64,000 nucleotides of DNA from Escherichia coli (lineage in GTDB: Bacteria > Pseudomonadota > Gammaproteobacteria > Enterobacterales > Enterobacteriaceae), in NCBI RefSeq assembly GCF_045037415.1, contig NZ_CP173438.1. One strand, given 5' to 3'. Of this stretch, positions 15,948-30,862 are shown piece after piece. The notes beneath the pieces are model-generated. The model was not told where the DNA came from. It saw nothing but the letters and a program-made list of their open reading frames with translations, and made no database searches. A program made the translations under genes and the position numbers. The stretch's first letter is position 1, and each line of letters opens with the position of its first letter.

Positions 15948-18797
15948 TTGAAATACCTTGCTTCTTTTCGTACAACCCTGAAAGCCTCGCGCTACATGTT
16001 CAGAGCATTGGCGTTAGTGCTCTGGCTGTTGATTGCTTTTTCATCCGTTTTTTACATCGTTAATGCGTTACATCAGCGAGAATCGGAAATTCGTCAGGAA
16101 TTTAATCTGAGTTCCGATCAGGCTCAGCGCTTTATTCAACGCACCTCTGATGTGATGAAAGAGCTGAAGTACATAGCTGAAAATCGCTTATCGGCAGAAA
16201 ACGGTGTGCTTTCCCCGCGTGGACGAGAAACGCAGACGGATGTGCCTGCGTTTGAACCGCTGTTTGCTGACTCTGATTGTTCCGCAATGAGTAACACCTG
16301 GCGAGGTTCTCTGGAGTCATTGGCGTGGTTTATGCGCTACTGGCGCGATAATTTTTCTGCGGCTTACGATCTAAACCGGGTATTTTTAATCGGCAGCGAT
16401 AACCTCTGCATGGCCAATTTCGGTCTGCGTGATATGCCAGTGGAACGCGATACCGCGCTAAAAGCTTTGCATGAACGCATTAATAAATATCGAAATGCAC
16501 CACAAGATGATAGTGGCAGTAACCTCTACTGGATCAGCGAAGGTCCGCGCCCTGGCGTCGGGTATTTTTACGCCTTGACGCCAGTTTATCTGGCGAACCG
16601 GTTGCAGGCGCTTTTGGGTGTCGAGCAAACCATCCGGATGGAGAACTTTTTCTTACCTGGTACGTTGCCGATGGGGGTTACCATTCTTGATGAAAATGGT
16701 CATACCCTGATTTCGCTTACCGGACCAGAAAGCAAAATTAAGGGCGATCCTCGCTGGATGCAGGAACGCTCCTGGTTTGGCTATACGGAAGGGTTCCGGG
16801 AACTGGTGCTGAAGAAAAATCTGCCACCCTCATCGCTAAGCATCGTTTATTCAGTGCCAGTTGATAAGGTGCTGGAACGCATTCGCATGTTGATCCTTAA
16901 CGCAATTTTGCTGAATGTGCTTGCCGGAGCTGCATTGTTTACTCTCGCGCGGATGTACGAGCGGCGTATTTTCATTCCGGCGGAAAGCGACGCCCTGCGA
17001 CTGGAAGAACATGAGCAGTTTAATCGCAAGATTGTCGCCTCCGCGCCAGTGGGTATCTGCATTTTGCGTACCGCTGATGGCGTCAATATTTTAAGTAACG
17101 AACTGGCGCATACTTATCTCAATATGCTTACGCATGAGGACCGCCAACGGCTGACACAAATTATCTGTGGGCAGCAGGTCAATTTTGTTGATGTCCTGAC
17201 CAGCAACAATACCAATCTGCAAATCAGCTTCGTCCATTCGCGCTATCGTAATGAAAACGTGGCCATTTGTGTGCTGGTGGATGTTTCTTCGCGCGTGAAG
17301 ATGGAAGAGTCGTTGCAGGAGATGGCACAAGCAGCGGAACAGGCGAGCCAGTCAAAATCGATGTTCCTGGCCACCGTCAGTCATGAGCTGCGAACGCCGC
17401 TGTATGGCATTATCGGTAACCTGGATCTGTTGCAAACCAAAGAGTTACCGAAAGGCGTCGATCGTCTGGTGACGGCAATGAACAACTCTTCCAGCCTGTT
17501 GTTGAAAATTATCAGCGATATTCTCGATTTCTCGAAAATTGAATCAGAACAGTTGAAGATCGAACCGCGTGAGTTTTCACCGCGTGAAGTGATGAACCAC
17601 ATCACCGCCAACTATTTACCGCTGGTGGTACGCAAGCAGTTAGGCTTGTACTGCTTTATTGAACCGGATGTGCCAGTGGCCTTAAATGGCGACCCGATGC
17701 GTTTACAGCAGGTCATCTCCAACCTGTTGAGTAACGCCATAAAATTCACCGATACCGGCTGTATAGTTTTGCATGTTCGCGCTGATGGCGATTATCTCTC
17801 TATCCGTGTTCGCGATACCGGCGTGGGGATACCGGCGAAAGAAGTGGTGCGCTTGTTTGATCCCTTCTTCCAGGTCGGAACGGGCGTACAGCGTAACTTC
17901 CAGGGGACTGGTCTGGGTCTGGCGATTTGTGAAAAACTGATCAGCATGATGGACGGCGACATCTCGGTAGATTCAGAACCGGGAATGGGCAGCCAGTTTA
18001 CCGTGCGTATTCCGTTATACGGCGCTCAGTACCCGCAGAAAAAAGGTGTGGAAGGGTTGAGTGGTAAACGCTGCTGGCTGGCGGTCCGCAATGCGTCGCT
18101 CTGTCAGTTCCTGGAAACCAGTTTGCAGCGCAGCGGCATCGTCGTTACAACATACGAAGGGCAGGAACCGACTCCCGAAGATGTGTTAATTACTGACGAG
18201 GTAGTGAACAAAAAATGGCAGGGCAGAGCGGTAGTGACCTTCTGTCGTCGCCATATTGGTATTCCGCTGGAGAAAGCGCCAGGGGAGTGGGTACATAGTG
18301 TGGCTGCTCCGCATGAGCTACCGGCATTGTTGGCGCGTATTTATTTGATCGAGATGGAGAGCGACGATCCTGCTAACGCTCTGCCGTCGACGGACAAAGC
18401 GGTCAGCGATAATGACGATATGATGATTCTGGTCGTGGATGATCATCCGATTAACCGGCGTCTGCTGGCAGATCAGTTGGGATCGTTGGGCTATCAATGT
18501 AAAACCGCGAATGATGGCGTCGATGCGCTTAATGTACTTAACAAGAATCATATTGATATCGTGCTTAGCGACGTCAATATGCCAAATATGGATGGTTACC
18601 GCTTGACGCAACGCATTCGTCAGTTGGGACTGACGTTGCCGGTAATCGGAGTAACTGCTAATGCGTTGGCTGAAGAGAAGCAGCGGTGTCTGGAGTCCGG
18701 TATGGACAGCTGCCTGTCGAAGCCGGTAACGCTGGATGTGATAAAACAGACGCTGACGGTATATGCCGAGAGGGTCAGGAAATCGCGGGAATCGTAG
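15948..18797 (+). CDS. rcsC: hybrid sensor histidine kinase RcsC
   Basis: 949-aa ORF, TTG start; N-terminus MKYLASFRTTLK; histidine kinase plus C-terminal receiver domain (ILVVDDHPINRRL). Confidence 0.95.
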   Translation: MKYLASFRTTLKASRYMFRALALVLWLLIAFSSVFYIVNALHQRESEIRQEFNLSSDQAQRFIQRTSDVMKELKYIAENRLSAENGVLSPRGRETQTDVPAFEPLFADSDCSAMSNTWRGSLESLAWFMRYWRDNFSAAYDLNRVFLIGSDNLCMANFGLRDMPVERDTALKALHERINKYRNAPQDDSGSNLYWISEGPRPGVGYFYALTPVYLANRLQALLGVEQTIRMENFFLPGTLPMGVTILDENGHTLISLTGPESKIKGDPRWMQERSWFGYTEGFRELVLKKNLPPSSLSIVYSVPVDKVLERIRMLILNAILLNVLAGAALFTLARMYERRIFIPAESDALRLEEHEQFNRKIVASAPVGICILRTADGVNILSNELAHTYLNMLTHEDRQRLTQIICGQQVNFVDVLTSNNTNLQISFVHSRYRNENVAICVLVDVSSRVKMEESLQEMAQAAEQASQSKSMFLATVSHELRTPLYGIIGNLDLLQTKELPKGVDRLVTAMNNSSSLLLKIISDILDFSKIESEQLKIEPREFSPREVMNHITANYLPLVVRKQLGLYCFIEPDVPVALNGDPMRLQQVISNLLSNAIKFTDTGCIVLHVRADGDYLSIRVRDTGVGIPAKEVVRLFDPFFQVGTGVQRNFQGTGLGLAICEKLISMMDGDISVDSEPGMGSQFTVRIPLYGAQYPQKKGVEGLSGKRCWLAVRNASLCQFLETSLQRSGIVVTTYEGQEPTPEDVLITDEVVNKKWQGRAVVTFCRRHIGIPLEKAPGEWVHSVAAPHELPALLARIYLIEMESDDPANALPSTDKAVSDNDDMMILVVDDHPINRRLLADQLGSLGYQCKTANDGVDALNVLNKNHIDIVLSDVNMPNMDGYRLTQRIRQLGLTLPVIGVTANALAEEKQRCLESGMDSCLSKPVTLDVIKQTLTVYAERVRKSRES

Positions 18798-18995
18798 GAC
18801 GGATAAGGTGTTTATGCCGCATCTGGCATTCAGTGCAAATGCCAGATGCGACGCTGACGCGTCTTATCTGGCCTACTTTAATGTAATCTGTTGAAATAAT
18901 GGGAATCGTAGGACGGATAAGGCGTTTACGCCGCATCCGGCAATCCGTGCAAATGCCAGATAAGACACTGACGCGTCTTATCTGGCCTACAGGTG
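18786..18995. repeat. REP/BIME tandem (two ~100-bp units)
   Basis: Two near-identical units each starting GGGAATCGTAGGACGGATAAGG and containing palindromic GCCGGATG / GCCAGATAAGACGCGTCAG REP motifs; the first unit overlaps the last codons of rcsC. Confidence 0.7.
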
Positions 18996-18996
18996 A

Positions 18997-19647
18997 TTAG
19001 TCTTTATCTGCCGGACTCAACGTCACAGAAGAGAGATAATTCAGCAGAGCAATATCGTTCTCGACACCCAGCTTCATCATCGCAGATTTCTTCTGGCTAC
19101 TGATGGTTTTAATACTGCGGTTCAGCTTTTTAGCGATCTCGGTCACCAGGAAGCCTTCCGCAAACAGGCGCAGAACTTCACTCTCTTTTGGCGAGAGACG
19201 CTTGTCACCGTAACCACCAGCACTGATTTTTTCCAACAGGCGAGAAACGCTTTCCGGGGTAAATTTCTTCCCTTTCTGCAGCGCGGCGAGAGCCTTCGGC
19301 AAATCGGTCGGTGCACCTTGTTTCAGCACGATCCCTTCGATATCCAGATCCAATACCGCACTAAGAATCGCCGGGTTGTTGTTCATGGTCAGAACAATGA
19401 TCGACAGGCTTGGGAAATGGCGCTTGATGTACTTGATTAAGGTAATGCCATCACCGTACTTATCGCCAGGCATGGAGAGATCGGTAATCAACACATGCGC
19501 ATCCAGTTTCGGCAGATTGTTGATCAGTGCTGTAGAGTCTTCAAATTCGCCGACAACATTCACCCACTCAATTTGCTCAAGTGATTTGCGAATACCGAAC
19601 AAGACTATCGGATGGTCATCGGCAATAATTACGTTCATATTGTTCAT
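18997..19647 (-). CDS. rcsB: response regulator RcsB
   Basis: ORF track 18997..19692; native start MNNMNVIIADDH at 19647 (216 aa); LuxR-type helix-turn-helix at the C-terminus. Confidence 0.95.
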   Translation of the reverse strand: MNNMNVIIADDHPIVLFGIRKSLEQIEWVNVVGEFEDSTALINNLPKLDAHVLITDLSMPGDKYGDGITLIKYIKRHFPSLSIIVLTMNNNPAILSAVLDLDIEGIVLKQGAPTDLPKALAALQKGKKFTPESVSRLLEKISAGGYGDKRLSPKESEVLRLFAEGFLVTEIAKKLNRSIKTISSQKKSAMMKLGVENDIALLNYLSSVTLSPADKD

Positions 19648-22647: not shown

Positions 22648-22740
22648 AAAAAAAACCGGATGCGAGGCATCCGGTTGAAATAGGGGTAAACAGACATTCA
22701 GAAATGAATGACGGTAATAAATAAAGTTAATGATGATAGC
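22648..22740 (-). ncRNA. micF: MicF antisense small RNA
   Basis: Minus strand reads GCTATCATCATTAACTTTATTTATTACCGTCATTCATTTCTGAATGTCTGTTTACCCCTATTTCAACCGGATGCCTCGCATCCGGTTTTTTTT, i.e. the micF sequence with its intrinsic terminator; divergent from ompC. Confidence 0.85.
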
Positions 22741-22894
22741 GGGAGATATTCTAGTTGCGAGTGAAGGTTTTGTTTTGACATTCAGTGCTGTCAAATACTT
22801 AAGAATAAGTTATTGATTTTAACCTTGAATTAATATTGCTTGATGTTAGGTGCTTATTTTGCCATTCCGCAATAATCTTAAAAAGTTCCCTTGT

Positions 22895-30735: not shown

Positions 30736-30862
30736 GATGTGCCACATCCGGCATGGTTTGCCGGATGTGGCGTATGCTGATAAGACGCTTCAGCGTCGCA
30801 TCAGGCAACCGGCTCGGGCGTTAGATGTCGGATGCGGCGTAACCGCCTTATTCGGCCTACAG
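30736..30862. repeat. REP elements (BIME) between mqo and eco
   Basis: Imperfect palindromic units GCCGGATGTGGCGT...GATAAGACGC...GCATCAGGC / GTCGGATGCGGCGTAA... Confidence 0.65.

Follow-up and report, generated by a model that had tools for sequence, protein, structure and literature searches.

REP162, a catalogued Escherichia coli BIME-2 element, is present here as two tandem units that take up the entire space between the convergent genes rcsC and rcsB. Work on REP and BIME sequences at E. coli gene 3' ends goes back to 1984, and the element is of an already known, catalogued kind that matters little beyond its correct annotation. The local details it adds are modest: a stop codon shared with the GTAG of a REP, a duplication that took along the end of rcsC, and the putative replacement of a terminator by an array that exists in 1 to 4 copies. 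Such details could help in engineering Rcs expression or in comparing it from strain to strain. Combining these details, we consider it probable that a REP162 BIME-2 was duplicated together with the end of rcsC, replaced a terminator and sets transcript 3' ends through its Z2 hairpins.

Structure of the array

The window, the whole 64,000-nucleotide stretch of E. coli DNA that was analyzed, matches E. coli genomes at 100% identity, and the RefSeq annotation was read from those matches. A repeat search and alignment revealed a two-copy direct repeat at 18779-18876 and 18893-18990 (98 nt each, 89% identity) with a period of 114 bp from start to start. Each unit consists of an inverted Y-type REP, a 13-nt linker and a Z2-type REP, i.e. 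one BIME-2 unit. A tandem REP/BIME filling the convergent gap at 18786-18995 had been proposed in an earlier note on this DNA. The direct repeat with its four REP palindromes bears out the proposal, and the range was essentially right, as the array spans 18779-18990. Identity between the units is uninterrupted from 18786 (GGGAATCGTAGG), and weaker homology begins at 18779. TRF missed the repeat at its default scoring, probably for want of two complete copies. The name REP162 for the rcsB-rcsC element is given in Table 16 of bioRxiv 10.64898/2026.03.23.713779. The features are as follows.

15948..18797, + strand: rcsC, sensor kinase, 949 aa, from the list of open reading frames; ends ...RKSRES; stop TAG at 18795-18797
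18779..18892, + strand: repeat unit 1; last 15 nt of rcsC before GTAG, Y1, S linker, Z2-1 and the first 16 nt of the spacer
18794..18827, - strand: Y-type REP 1 (Y1), from the tail motif and a naRNA4 match; the + strand reads GTAGG...; holds the rcsC stop; degenerate in this strain
18828..18840, no strand: S-type head-to-head linker 1, 13 nt, ATTCAGTGCAAAT; read from the sequence between the hairpins
18841..18876, + strand: Z2-type REP 1 (Z2-1), strong hairpin, from the inverted repeat, tail motif and folding
18877..18907, no strand: tail-to-tail spacer, 31 nt; its right 15 nt (18893-18907, GAAATAATGGGAATC) are a decayed copy of the end of rcsC
18908..18941, - strand: Y-type REP 2 (Y2), from the tail motif, naRNA4 match and alignment, and folding
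18942..18954, no strand: head-to-head linker 2, 13 nt, AATCCGTGCAAAT; between the hairpins of unit 2, from the sequence and the Rfam alignment
18955..18990, + strand: Z2-type REP 2 (Z2-2), from the inverted repeat and folding
18997..19647, - strand: rcsB, response regulator, 216 aa; stop TAA at 18999-18997, 6 nt from the Z2-2 tail; K-12 length 651 nt

The REP tail motif CTTATCYGGCCTAC occurs six times in the window (0.41 expected), and four of the six copies lie inside the array. Both units match naRNA4 (Rfam RF02564) on the + strand over model positions 1-77, i.e. at full length, unit 1 at 18797-18873 with 66.7 bits and unit 2 at 18911-18987 with 70.0 bits. These scores are above the gathering score of 59.5 bits; those on the - strand (48 and 43 bits) fall under it. 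RNA folding, named in the earlier note as a check, agrees with a repeat of palindromes: both strands are far more stable than shuffled sequences (z -5.5 and -7.6). The Z2 hairpins range from -20 to -27 kcal/mol (z -4.4 to -6.1), with -21.4 and -22.8 kcal/mol for Z2-1 (z about -5) and -20.3 and -27 kcal/mol for Z2-2. The Z2-2 stem is a perfect 12 bp both here and in K-12, as neither strain retains the usual internal mismatch.

In the Gilson/Bachellier classification, BIME-2 elements combine Y and Z2 REPs with a short S linker and occur in tandem copies whose number varies among strains (PMC3333891). The rcsC/rcsB array has the same composition. Its Y (GTAGGnCGGATAAGGCGTTTACGCCGCATCCGGC) and Z2 (GCCnGATGCGACGCT..GCGTCTTATCnGGCCTAC) REPs alternate in orientation, its linkers at 18828-18840 and 18942-18954 are of the 13-nt S type and not the long L type, and its units are in tandem, conserved (89% identity) and variable in number (1-4 units among strains).

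The end of rcsC and the origin of the second unit

The rcsC stop codon TAG (18795-18797) belongs to the conserved GTAG that forms the foot of the first REP. As had been claimed, the repeat starts ahead of this stop: the open reading frame ends at 18797 and the repeat begins at 18779. The 15 coding nucleotides of rcsC before GTAG are identical to the flank of unit 2 at 12 of 15 positions (binomial P about 1.2e-5), and of the 136 GTAG sites that the window contains, no others form such a flank pair. The repeat thus extends 15 nt into rcsC because unit 2 holds a decayed copy of the gene's 3' end, which in turn indicates that the array grew by local duplication. By this alignment, the REP itself does not extend into rcsC; the duplicated segment took along the last 15 nt of the gene.

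The C-terminal RK(S/T)RES of rcsC is also present in genera without a REP at the locus. The rcsC 3' end is cgggagtcgtag in Pseudocitrobacter and tcgcgggaataa in Kluyvera, Erwinia rcsC encodes RKSRES, and there is no REP past the stop in any of the three. An origin of the last rcsC codons from a BIME is ruled out, as the same codons occur in genera that lack a REP here. The comparison indicates that the rcsC codons are older and that unit 2 carries a pseudo-end copied from them. We propose that the segment with the rcsC end was duplicated first and that unequal recombination between the units then gave the 1-, 3- and 4-unit alleles. The 4-unit allele keeps the 114-bp period in register.

The left 16 nt of the spacer showed no similarity above shuffled sequences to the rcsB-proximal flank or to upstream rcsC; on this comparison, they are left unexplained by a simple tandem duplication. 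Tail-to-tail flanking motifs of BIME-2 elements are classed as s, l or r. A BLAST search placed the 31-nt spacer of the rcs array at a single locus per genome, at a sensitivity that would let a 31-nt motif of ~75% identity escape in a 28-Gb database. The common 17-nt spacer, read as its reverse complement, also resembles the end of rcsC, both containing GCGGGAAT. This resemblance is probably a coincidence, since the corresponding side of the spacer adjoins Z2 rather than Y in canonical arrays.

Copy number among strains

Copy number among strains, which the earlier note had suggested comparing, does vary. The array comprises 1, 2, 3 or 4 units across 5,426 complete genomes, with gaps of 85, 199, 313 and 427 bp, respectively, and two units are found in the majority. 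Essentially all 5,426 genomes contain at least one unit, and about 32-39 contain at least three. The spacer junction was found in 4,436 of the 5,426. Alleles with internal deletions of the array exist, and Y1 is decaying in several lineages. In a contig scan, no E. albertii, E. fergusonii or Salmonella was among the matches listed.

Transcript 3' ends

No hairpin with a T-run was found on either strand of the E. coli sequence between 18300 and 19500 (0 sites), i.e. no Rho-independent terminator by this measure, and a looser scan returned only sub-hairpins in which an arm of the REP itself passes for the 'T-run'. In other genera, a relaxed scan found a hairpin with a T-run in 55 of 68 loci, on both strands in 31 of them. 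A recent preprint (bioRxiv 10.64898/2026.03.23.713779) lists two bidirectional-terminator overlap regions here, K-12 2316942-2316985 and 2316832-2316874, equivalent to window positions 18882-18839 over Z2-1 and 18992-18950 over Z2-2. They map exactly onto both Z2 hairpins, in a second-hand record (a supplementary table) where termination and exonucleolytic trimming to a hairpin are indistinguishable.

Since the terminator of other genera is missing in E. coli and the published table lists both Z2 hairpins, the role of the array is most likely to form the 3' ends of both transcripts. The earlier note had listed mRNA stabilization, termination and gyrase or IHF binding as candidate functions; the part concerning terminators and mRNA 3' ends finds support at this locus, with both Z2 hairpins in the table and no intrinsic terminator in the gap, and the part concerning IHF falls (see below). 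We propose that the array replaced a short bidirectional intrinsic terminator like that of other Enterobacterales, and that the stable Z2 hairpins, formed on both strands, would set the 3' ends of the rcsC and rcsD-rcsB transcripts. They could do so through hairpin-dependent termination without a U-tract, possibly with Rho or head-on polymerase collisions, by blocking 3'-to-5' exonucleases, or by both.

The same preprint describes REP325 as a partial terminator and a stabilizer of upstream mRNA, and reports higher expression of convergent gene pairs with REPs (bioRxiv 10.64898/2026.03.23.713779). Rho dependence was not detectable for REP325 fragments of 2-4 hairpins, mRNA half-lives of REP-associated genes were not longer genome-wide, and REP162 is absent from the part of the supplement that contains the Rho-binding table.

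It is possible, though doubtful, that the array is a selfish or neutral passenger that spread via TnpA-REP or recombination and settled in a harmless convergent gap, with the 3' ends being incidental. Variation in copy number and linkers is known for BIME-2 elements (PMC3333891), and here the number is free to range from 1 to 4, with the internal deletions and Y1 decay described above. Because 1-4 copies are tolerated, most of the array is arguably dispensable or neutral. In addition, the same gap in Citrobacter and Enterobacter has REP-like sequences, apparently from independent colonization. However, the E. coli gap has no other recognizable terminator and yet transcript ends map to the Z2 hairpins, and the retention of at least one unit in essentially every genome also argues against a mere passenger.

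Possible effects at the stop codons

REPs within 15 nt of a stop codon are said to slow translation termination, in work by Liang et al. from 2015. The Y1 stem begins at 18798, directly after the rcsC TAG, and the Z2-2 stem 10 nt after the rcsB TAA. As the REP hairpins start 0 nt (rcsC) and about 10 nt (rcsB) past the stops, they could slow translation termination as an effect secondary to 3'-end formation. A stronger proposal, that ribosomes stalled by the REPs lead to mRNA cleavage and tmRNA tagging and so lower RcsC and RcsB, seems unlikely to us. The distances can be read straight from the sequence and Y1 of K-12 is near the consensus, but in this strain the Y1 hairpin alone reaches only -9.3 kcal/mol (z +0.6), no better than shuffled sequences, and the most stable local pairing (18818-18830 with 18838-18850) starts 20 nt past the rcsC stop. 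The weak Y1 makes ribosome stalling at the rcsC stop doubtful in this strain.

Together, copy number (1-4) and the condition of the Y hairpin over the rcsC stop could conceivably form a strain-specific dial on the RcsC:RcsB ratio, a speculation to which we give very little credence. Such a dial would act via termination efficiency, 3'-end stability and stop-codon stalling. If real, it would add to natural variation in Rcs envelope-stress and capsule signaling.

Gyrase, HU and IHF

A role at the DNA level, in which the array manages supercoiling between the convergent units as a BIME-2 gyrase site or as a source of HU-binding naRNA, appears improbable. In a gyrase map (PMC6379681), gyrase binding is a property of the BIME-2 class and cleavage sites are over-represented, mainly in Y REPs, and both rcs units match the naRNA4 family. 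Against this, only a subset of BIME-2 elements is cleaved, and neither rcsC nor rcsB is named in the text supplementary files of that map (PMC6379681). The role of naRNA4 as a nucleoid-associated, HU-binding RNA is disputed: bioRxiv 10.64898/2026.03.23.713779 reports no measurable nucleoid compaction by REP325/naRNA4 and no REP-REP contacts seen.

The IHF site suggested in the earlier note is rejected. IHF binding belongs to BIME-1, with its Z1 REP and long L linker (PMC3333891). The rcsC/rcsB array, a Y/Z2 BIME-2 with 13-nt linkers, contains neither a Z1 REP nor a long head-to-head linker, and its sole match to the IHF core (18884-18896, one mismatch) is at the background rate, with 63 such matches found and 53 expected.

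Comparison with known systems

The closest relative is REP162 of K-12 MG1655, which has the same locus, two units, a 31-nt spacer and a 199-bp gap. The two arrays are distinguished only by point differences: K-12 rcsC ends in RDS (RES here), Y1 of K-12 departs less from the consensus, and the spacer and loops vary at a few bases. The model BIME-2 array, REP325/naRNA4 between yjdM and yjdN, resembles the rcs array in having Y, a short linker, Z2 and a constant spacer in tandem, and both rcs units match the Rfam model that was built on REP325, whose units are 77 nt long. However, REP325 has six units, and its 17-nt spacer (AAATTCCCGCACCCTCC) is shared by many loci, whereas the rcs array has two units and a 31-nt, single-locus spacer unlike this widespread one. 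REP325 also lies between tandem genes; the rcs array is flanked by convergent genes, one of whose stop codons it overlaps.

BIME-1 elements (RIP/RIB; Y, L, Z1 and an IHF site) share with the rcs array the inverted REP pairs at gene 3' ends. They are single-copy, whereas the rcs array is in tandem and without Z1 or the long L linker. The bidirectional intrinsic terminators of other genera are built differently, with an A-run, a hairpin and a T-run; the E. coli hairpins are without flanking A/T runs and are part of a dispersed repeat family. Nevertheless, these terminators lie at exactly the position of the array, and presumably do the same job.

Architecture of the rcsC/rcsB repeat

The 199-bp gap between the convergent rcsC and rcsB genes contains two related repeat units with REP palindromes, as the earlier note had claimed with essentially correct coordinates. 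The repeat search found one pair of 98-nt direct repeats, 89% identical and 114 nt apart from start to start, each copy containing short inverted repeats. A pairwise alignment of the two copies agreed; TRF did not report the rcsC/rcsB repeat. Comparison with the E. coli REP consensus resolves each copy into a Y-type REP, a 13-nt head-to-head linker and a Z2-type REP.

Features in and around the gap
15948-18797, + strand: rcsC open reading frame (ORF list)
18779-18876: first repeat copy
18794-18827: Y1, Y-type REP in the orientation starting GTAGG
18841-18876: Z2-1, Z2-type REP ending GGCCTAC
18877-18907: 31-nt tail-to-tail spacer between the copies
18893-18990: second repeat copy
18908-18941: Y2, Y-type REP in the same orientation
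18955-18990: Z2-2, Z2-type REP ending GGCCTAC
18997, - strand: rcsB 3' end (ORF list)
22648-22741, - strand: MicF sRNA (Rfam RF00033, 116.8 bits)
45979-46052, - strand: tRNA (same search)
49768-49793, - strand: L25 ribosomal-protein leader (same search)

The MicF position is consistent with the E. coli ompC-micF-rcsD-rcsB-rcsC neighbourhood.

A 601-bp region around the array matches several E. coli chromosomes at 100% identity and almost all of 5,426 complete genomes at 95% or more; rcsC and rcsB are annotated beneath the match. K-12 MG1655 has the same two units in a gap of identical size. The element is the already known BIME-2 REP162, an ordinary E. coli intergenic feature.

In the folding check proposed by the earlier note, the region folds far better than shuffled controls on both strands (z -5.5 and -7.6). 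Matches to the REP tail motif are far more frequent in the window than expected, with four of the six in the array; the others, at 30847-30860 and 49363-49376, carry one mismatch each. The last rcsB codons (19004-19017, TTATCTGCCGGACT on the + strand) are 79% identical to the REP tail TTATCTGGCCTACT, probably by chance. In Z2-2, the left arm reads GATAAGAC in the window strain and K-12 in place of the canonical GATGCGAC, which is retained in strains such as ET729. The change removes an internal mismatch and leaves a perfect 12-bp stem; from its sequence, it looks like a quasipalindrome ‘correction’ via template switching. According to PMC3333891, TnpA-REP no longer binds once the mismatch in the stem is lost.

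Overlap with rcsC and origin of the second unit

That the repeat starts before the rcsC stop (18797) had been noted earlier; its start lies at 18779. The stop TAG belongs to the REP, because the conserved tetranucleotide GTAG at the Y1 foot occupies 18794-18797. The 15 nt preceding GTAG are GAAATCGCGGGAATC in unit 1, the rcsC end, and GAAATAATGGGAATC in unit 2. They are identical at 12 of 15 positions (binomial P ~1.2e-5); comparison of the 15-nt flanks of all 136 GTAG sites in the window gave no other such pair.

Which copy is original was judged from rcsC-rcsB junctions at 79 loci of other species, among the matches listed. The rcsC end is cgggagtcgtag in Pseudocitrobacter (RES, TAG stop) and tcgcgggaataa in Kluyvera, and rcsC of Erwinia species encodes RKSRES. 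In none of these is the stop followed by a REP; the end codons are therefore ancestral rcsC and the unit-2 copy is derived. Judging from these sequences, the array must have grown by duplication of a segment carrying the rcsC end rather than by two independent insertions. The pseudo-end is present in every internal unit of the four-unit allele. The repeat overlap with rcsC is explained by the shared GTAG/TAG and the duplicated gene end.

The 16 nt at the left end of the spacer (18877-18892, TTTAATGTAATCTGTT) occur in the genome only at this locus and show no detectable resemblance to the flanks; simple tandem duplication therefore leaves part of the array unexplained. Alternatively, insertion of a 98-nt copy may have taken place 16 nt downstream from unit 1, and inter-repeat recombination may later have produced the one-unit allele. 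The spacer is already present in L005, a locus of a divergent E. coli lineage whose second unit has partly collapsed, so the two-unit state is probably old within the species.

When the 17-nt tail-to-tail spacer common in BIME-2 is reverse-complemented, it reads GGAGGGTGCGGGAATTT before GTAGG, and the rcsC end similarly reads GGAAATCGCGGGAATC before GTAGG (18779-18798), with GCGGGAAT common to both. This spacer occurs in REP325 (L088) and between yaiL-fghA, mhpT-mhpE and yahI-yahG (L094-L096). The likeness could hint at homology-guided BIME capture; it is probably a coincidence, because the matching side adjoins Z2, not Y, in canonical arrays.

Copy number among strains

The strain comparison suggested by the earlier note revealed one to four units.

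Array alleles (units, gap, strains)
1 unit, 85 bp: OkiPb01692
2 units, 199 bp: window, K-12
3 units, 313 bp: M18, 14EC033
4 units, 427 bp: MS 115-1

Of 5,426 genomes, 4,436 have the spacer junction, once in nearly all; a synthetic query of junction, unit and junction has full coverage in about 32-39 genomes, and one-unit alleles make up 5 of 30 evenly spaced rows from the 601-bp region search. From these counts, about four-fifths of genomes have two units, slightly less than one-fifth have one, and less than 1% have three or four. Internal deletions affect unit 2 in two alleles. In L087 (E. coli F9792, O169:H41 strains), 18 bp are deleted across the S linker and Z2 head; in L005 (strain SCPM-O-B-8794), unit 2 is reduced to a single hybrid palindrome. 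These alleles show continuing decay and recombination within the array.

Probable role in transcript-end formation

Most other Enterobacterales have a gap of 30-90 bp with a hairpin between an A-run and a T-run, for instance in Citrobacter sp. FP75, Enterobacter, Pluralibacter and Cedecea. In a permissive scan, a hairpin plus T-run was found on at least one strand in 55 of 68 loci among the matches listed, and on both strands in 31. No site of this kind exists on either strand in E. coli. Both strands of the window give strong Z2 hairpins (-20 to -27 kcal/mol, z -4.4 to -6.1). Folding is weaker for the Y hairpins, and Y1 of the window strain (-9.3 kcal/mol, z +0.6) is not more stable than shuffled sequences.

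A supplementary table of ‘REPs appearing as bidirectional terminators’ has two rcsB/rcsC entries for REP162, at K-12 2316832-2316874 and 2316942-2316985 (bioRxiv 10.64898/2026.03.23.713779). With K-12 position x converted to 2335824 - x, these entries become window 18992-18950 and 18882-18839 and coincide with both Z2 hairpins, not with Y. The screen behind the table is the preprint's reference 47, presumably Ju et al. 2019, a SEnd-seq study. The preprint also reports that REP325 acts as a terminator with partial Rho dependence and stabilises the upstream mRNA, that expression is higher for convergent gene pairs containing a REP, and that bidirectional terminators include 78 REPs; REP162 does not occur in the part of the Rho-binding table examined (bioRxiv 10.64898/2026.03.23.713779).

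Bidirectional transcript-end formation is the best-supported function. We infer that the array would form the 3' ends of both the rcsC and rcsD-rcsB transcripts, through termination or exonuclease arrest, and would have taken over from an ancestral intrinsic terminator, because the terminator of other genera is absent in E. coli, the Z2 hairpins are strong, the published regions fall on them, and the preprint reports such activity for REPs. Among the functions listed in the earlier note, a terminator or 3'-end role is the one with support at this locus.

REP-like palindromes with species-specific sequences are seen in the same gap of other genera (L007, L008 and L071, Citrobacter youngae/werkmanii; L009, Enterobacter asburiae; L014). 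In E. asburiae they adjoin an intrinsic terminator that is still present. Their distribution suggests that the gap was colonised repeatedly and independently.

Other candidate roles

Ribosome stalling and reduced expression are reported for REPs less than 16 nt away from a stop codon (Liang et al. 2015, in the summary given by PMC12306157). Both genes are within this distance: the stem of Y1 begins at 18798, and that of Z2-2 begins 10 nt past the rcsB stop. Translational damping by the array is only a possibility, because Y1 is weak in the window strain and the best local pairing near the rcsC stop (18818-18830 with 18838-18850) begins 20 nt past it. Gyrase cleaves preferentially at a subset of BIME-2 elements; the supplements examined of that study do not mention rcsC or rcsB (PMC6379681). 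The proposal that naRNA4 organises the nucleoid is contradicted by a 2026 preprint (bioRxiv 10.64898/2026.03.23.713779). The IHF site suggested earlier falls away: the single IHF-core-like match, in the spacer at 18884-18896 and with one mismatch, is at background frequency, and the array has neither the Z1 nor the long L linker that the IHF-binding BIME-1 requires.

Comparison with known BIME-2 arrays

The REP/BIME label holds. Both units match Rfam RF02564 (naRNA4) at full length on the + strand, at 18797-18873 (66.7 bits) and 18911-18987 (70 bits), above the gathering score of 59.5. naRNA4 is one unit of REP325, which has six 77-bp repeats, each of Y and Z2 palindromes, with a constant linker and identical spacers (PMC4550694); we read the same architecture directly in K-12. 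BIME-2 elements combine Z2 and Y with a short S linker in tandem copies that are well conserved at each locus and vary in number among strains (PMC3333891). The rcs element agrees with this description, in its composition and in its copy-number behaviour.
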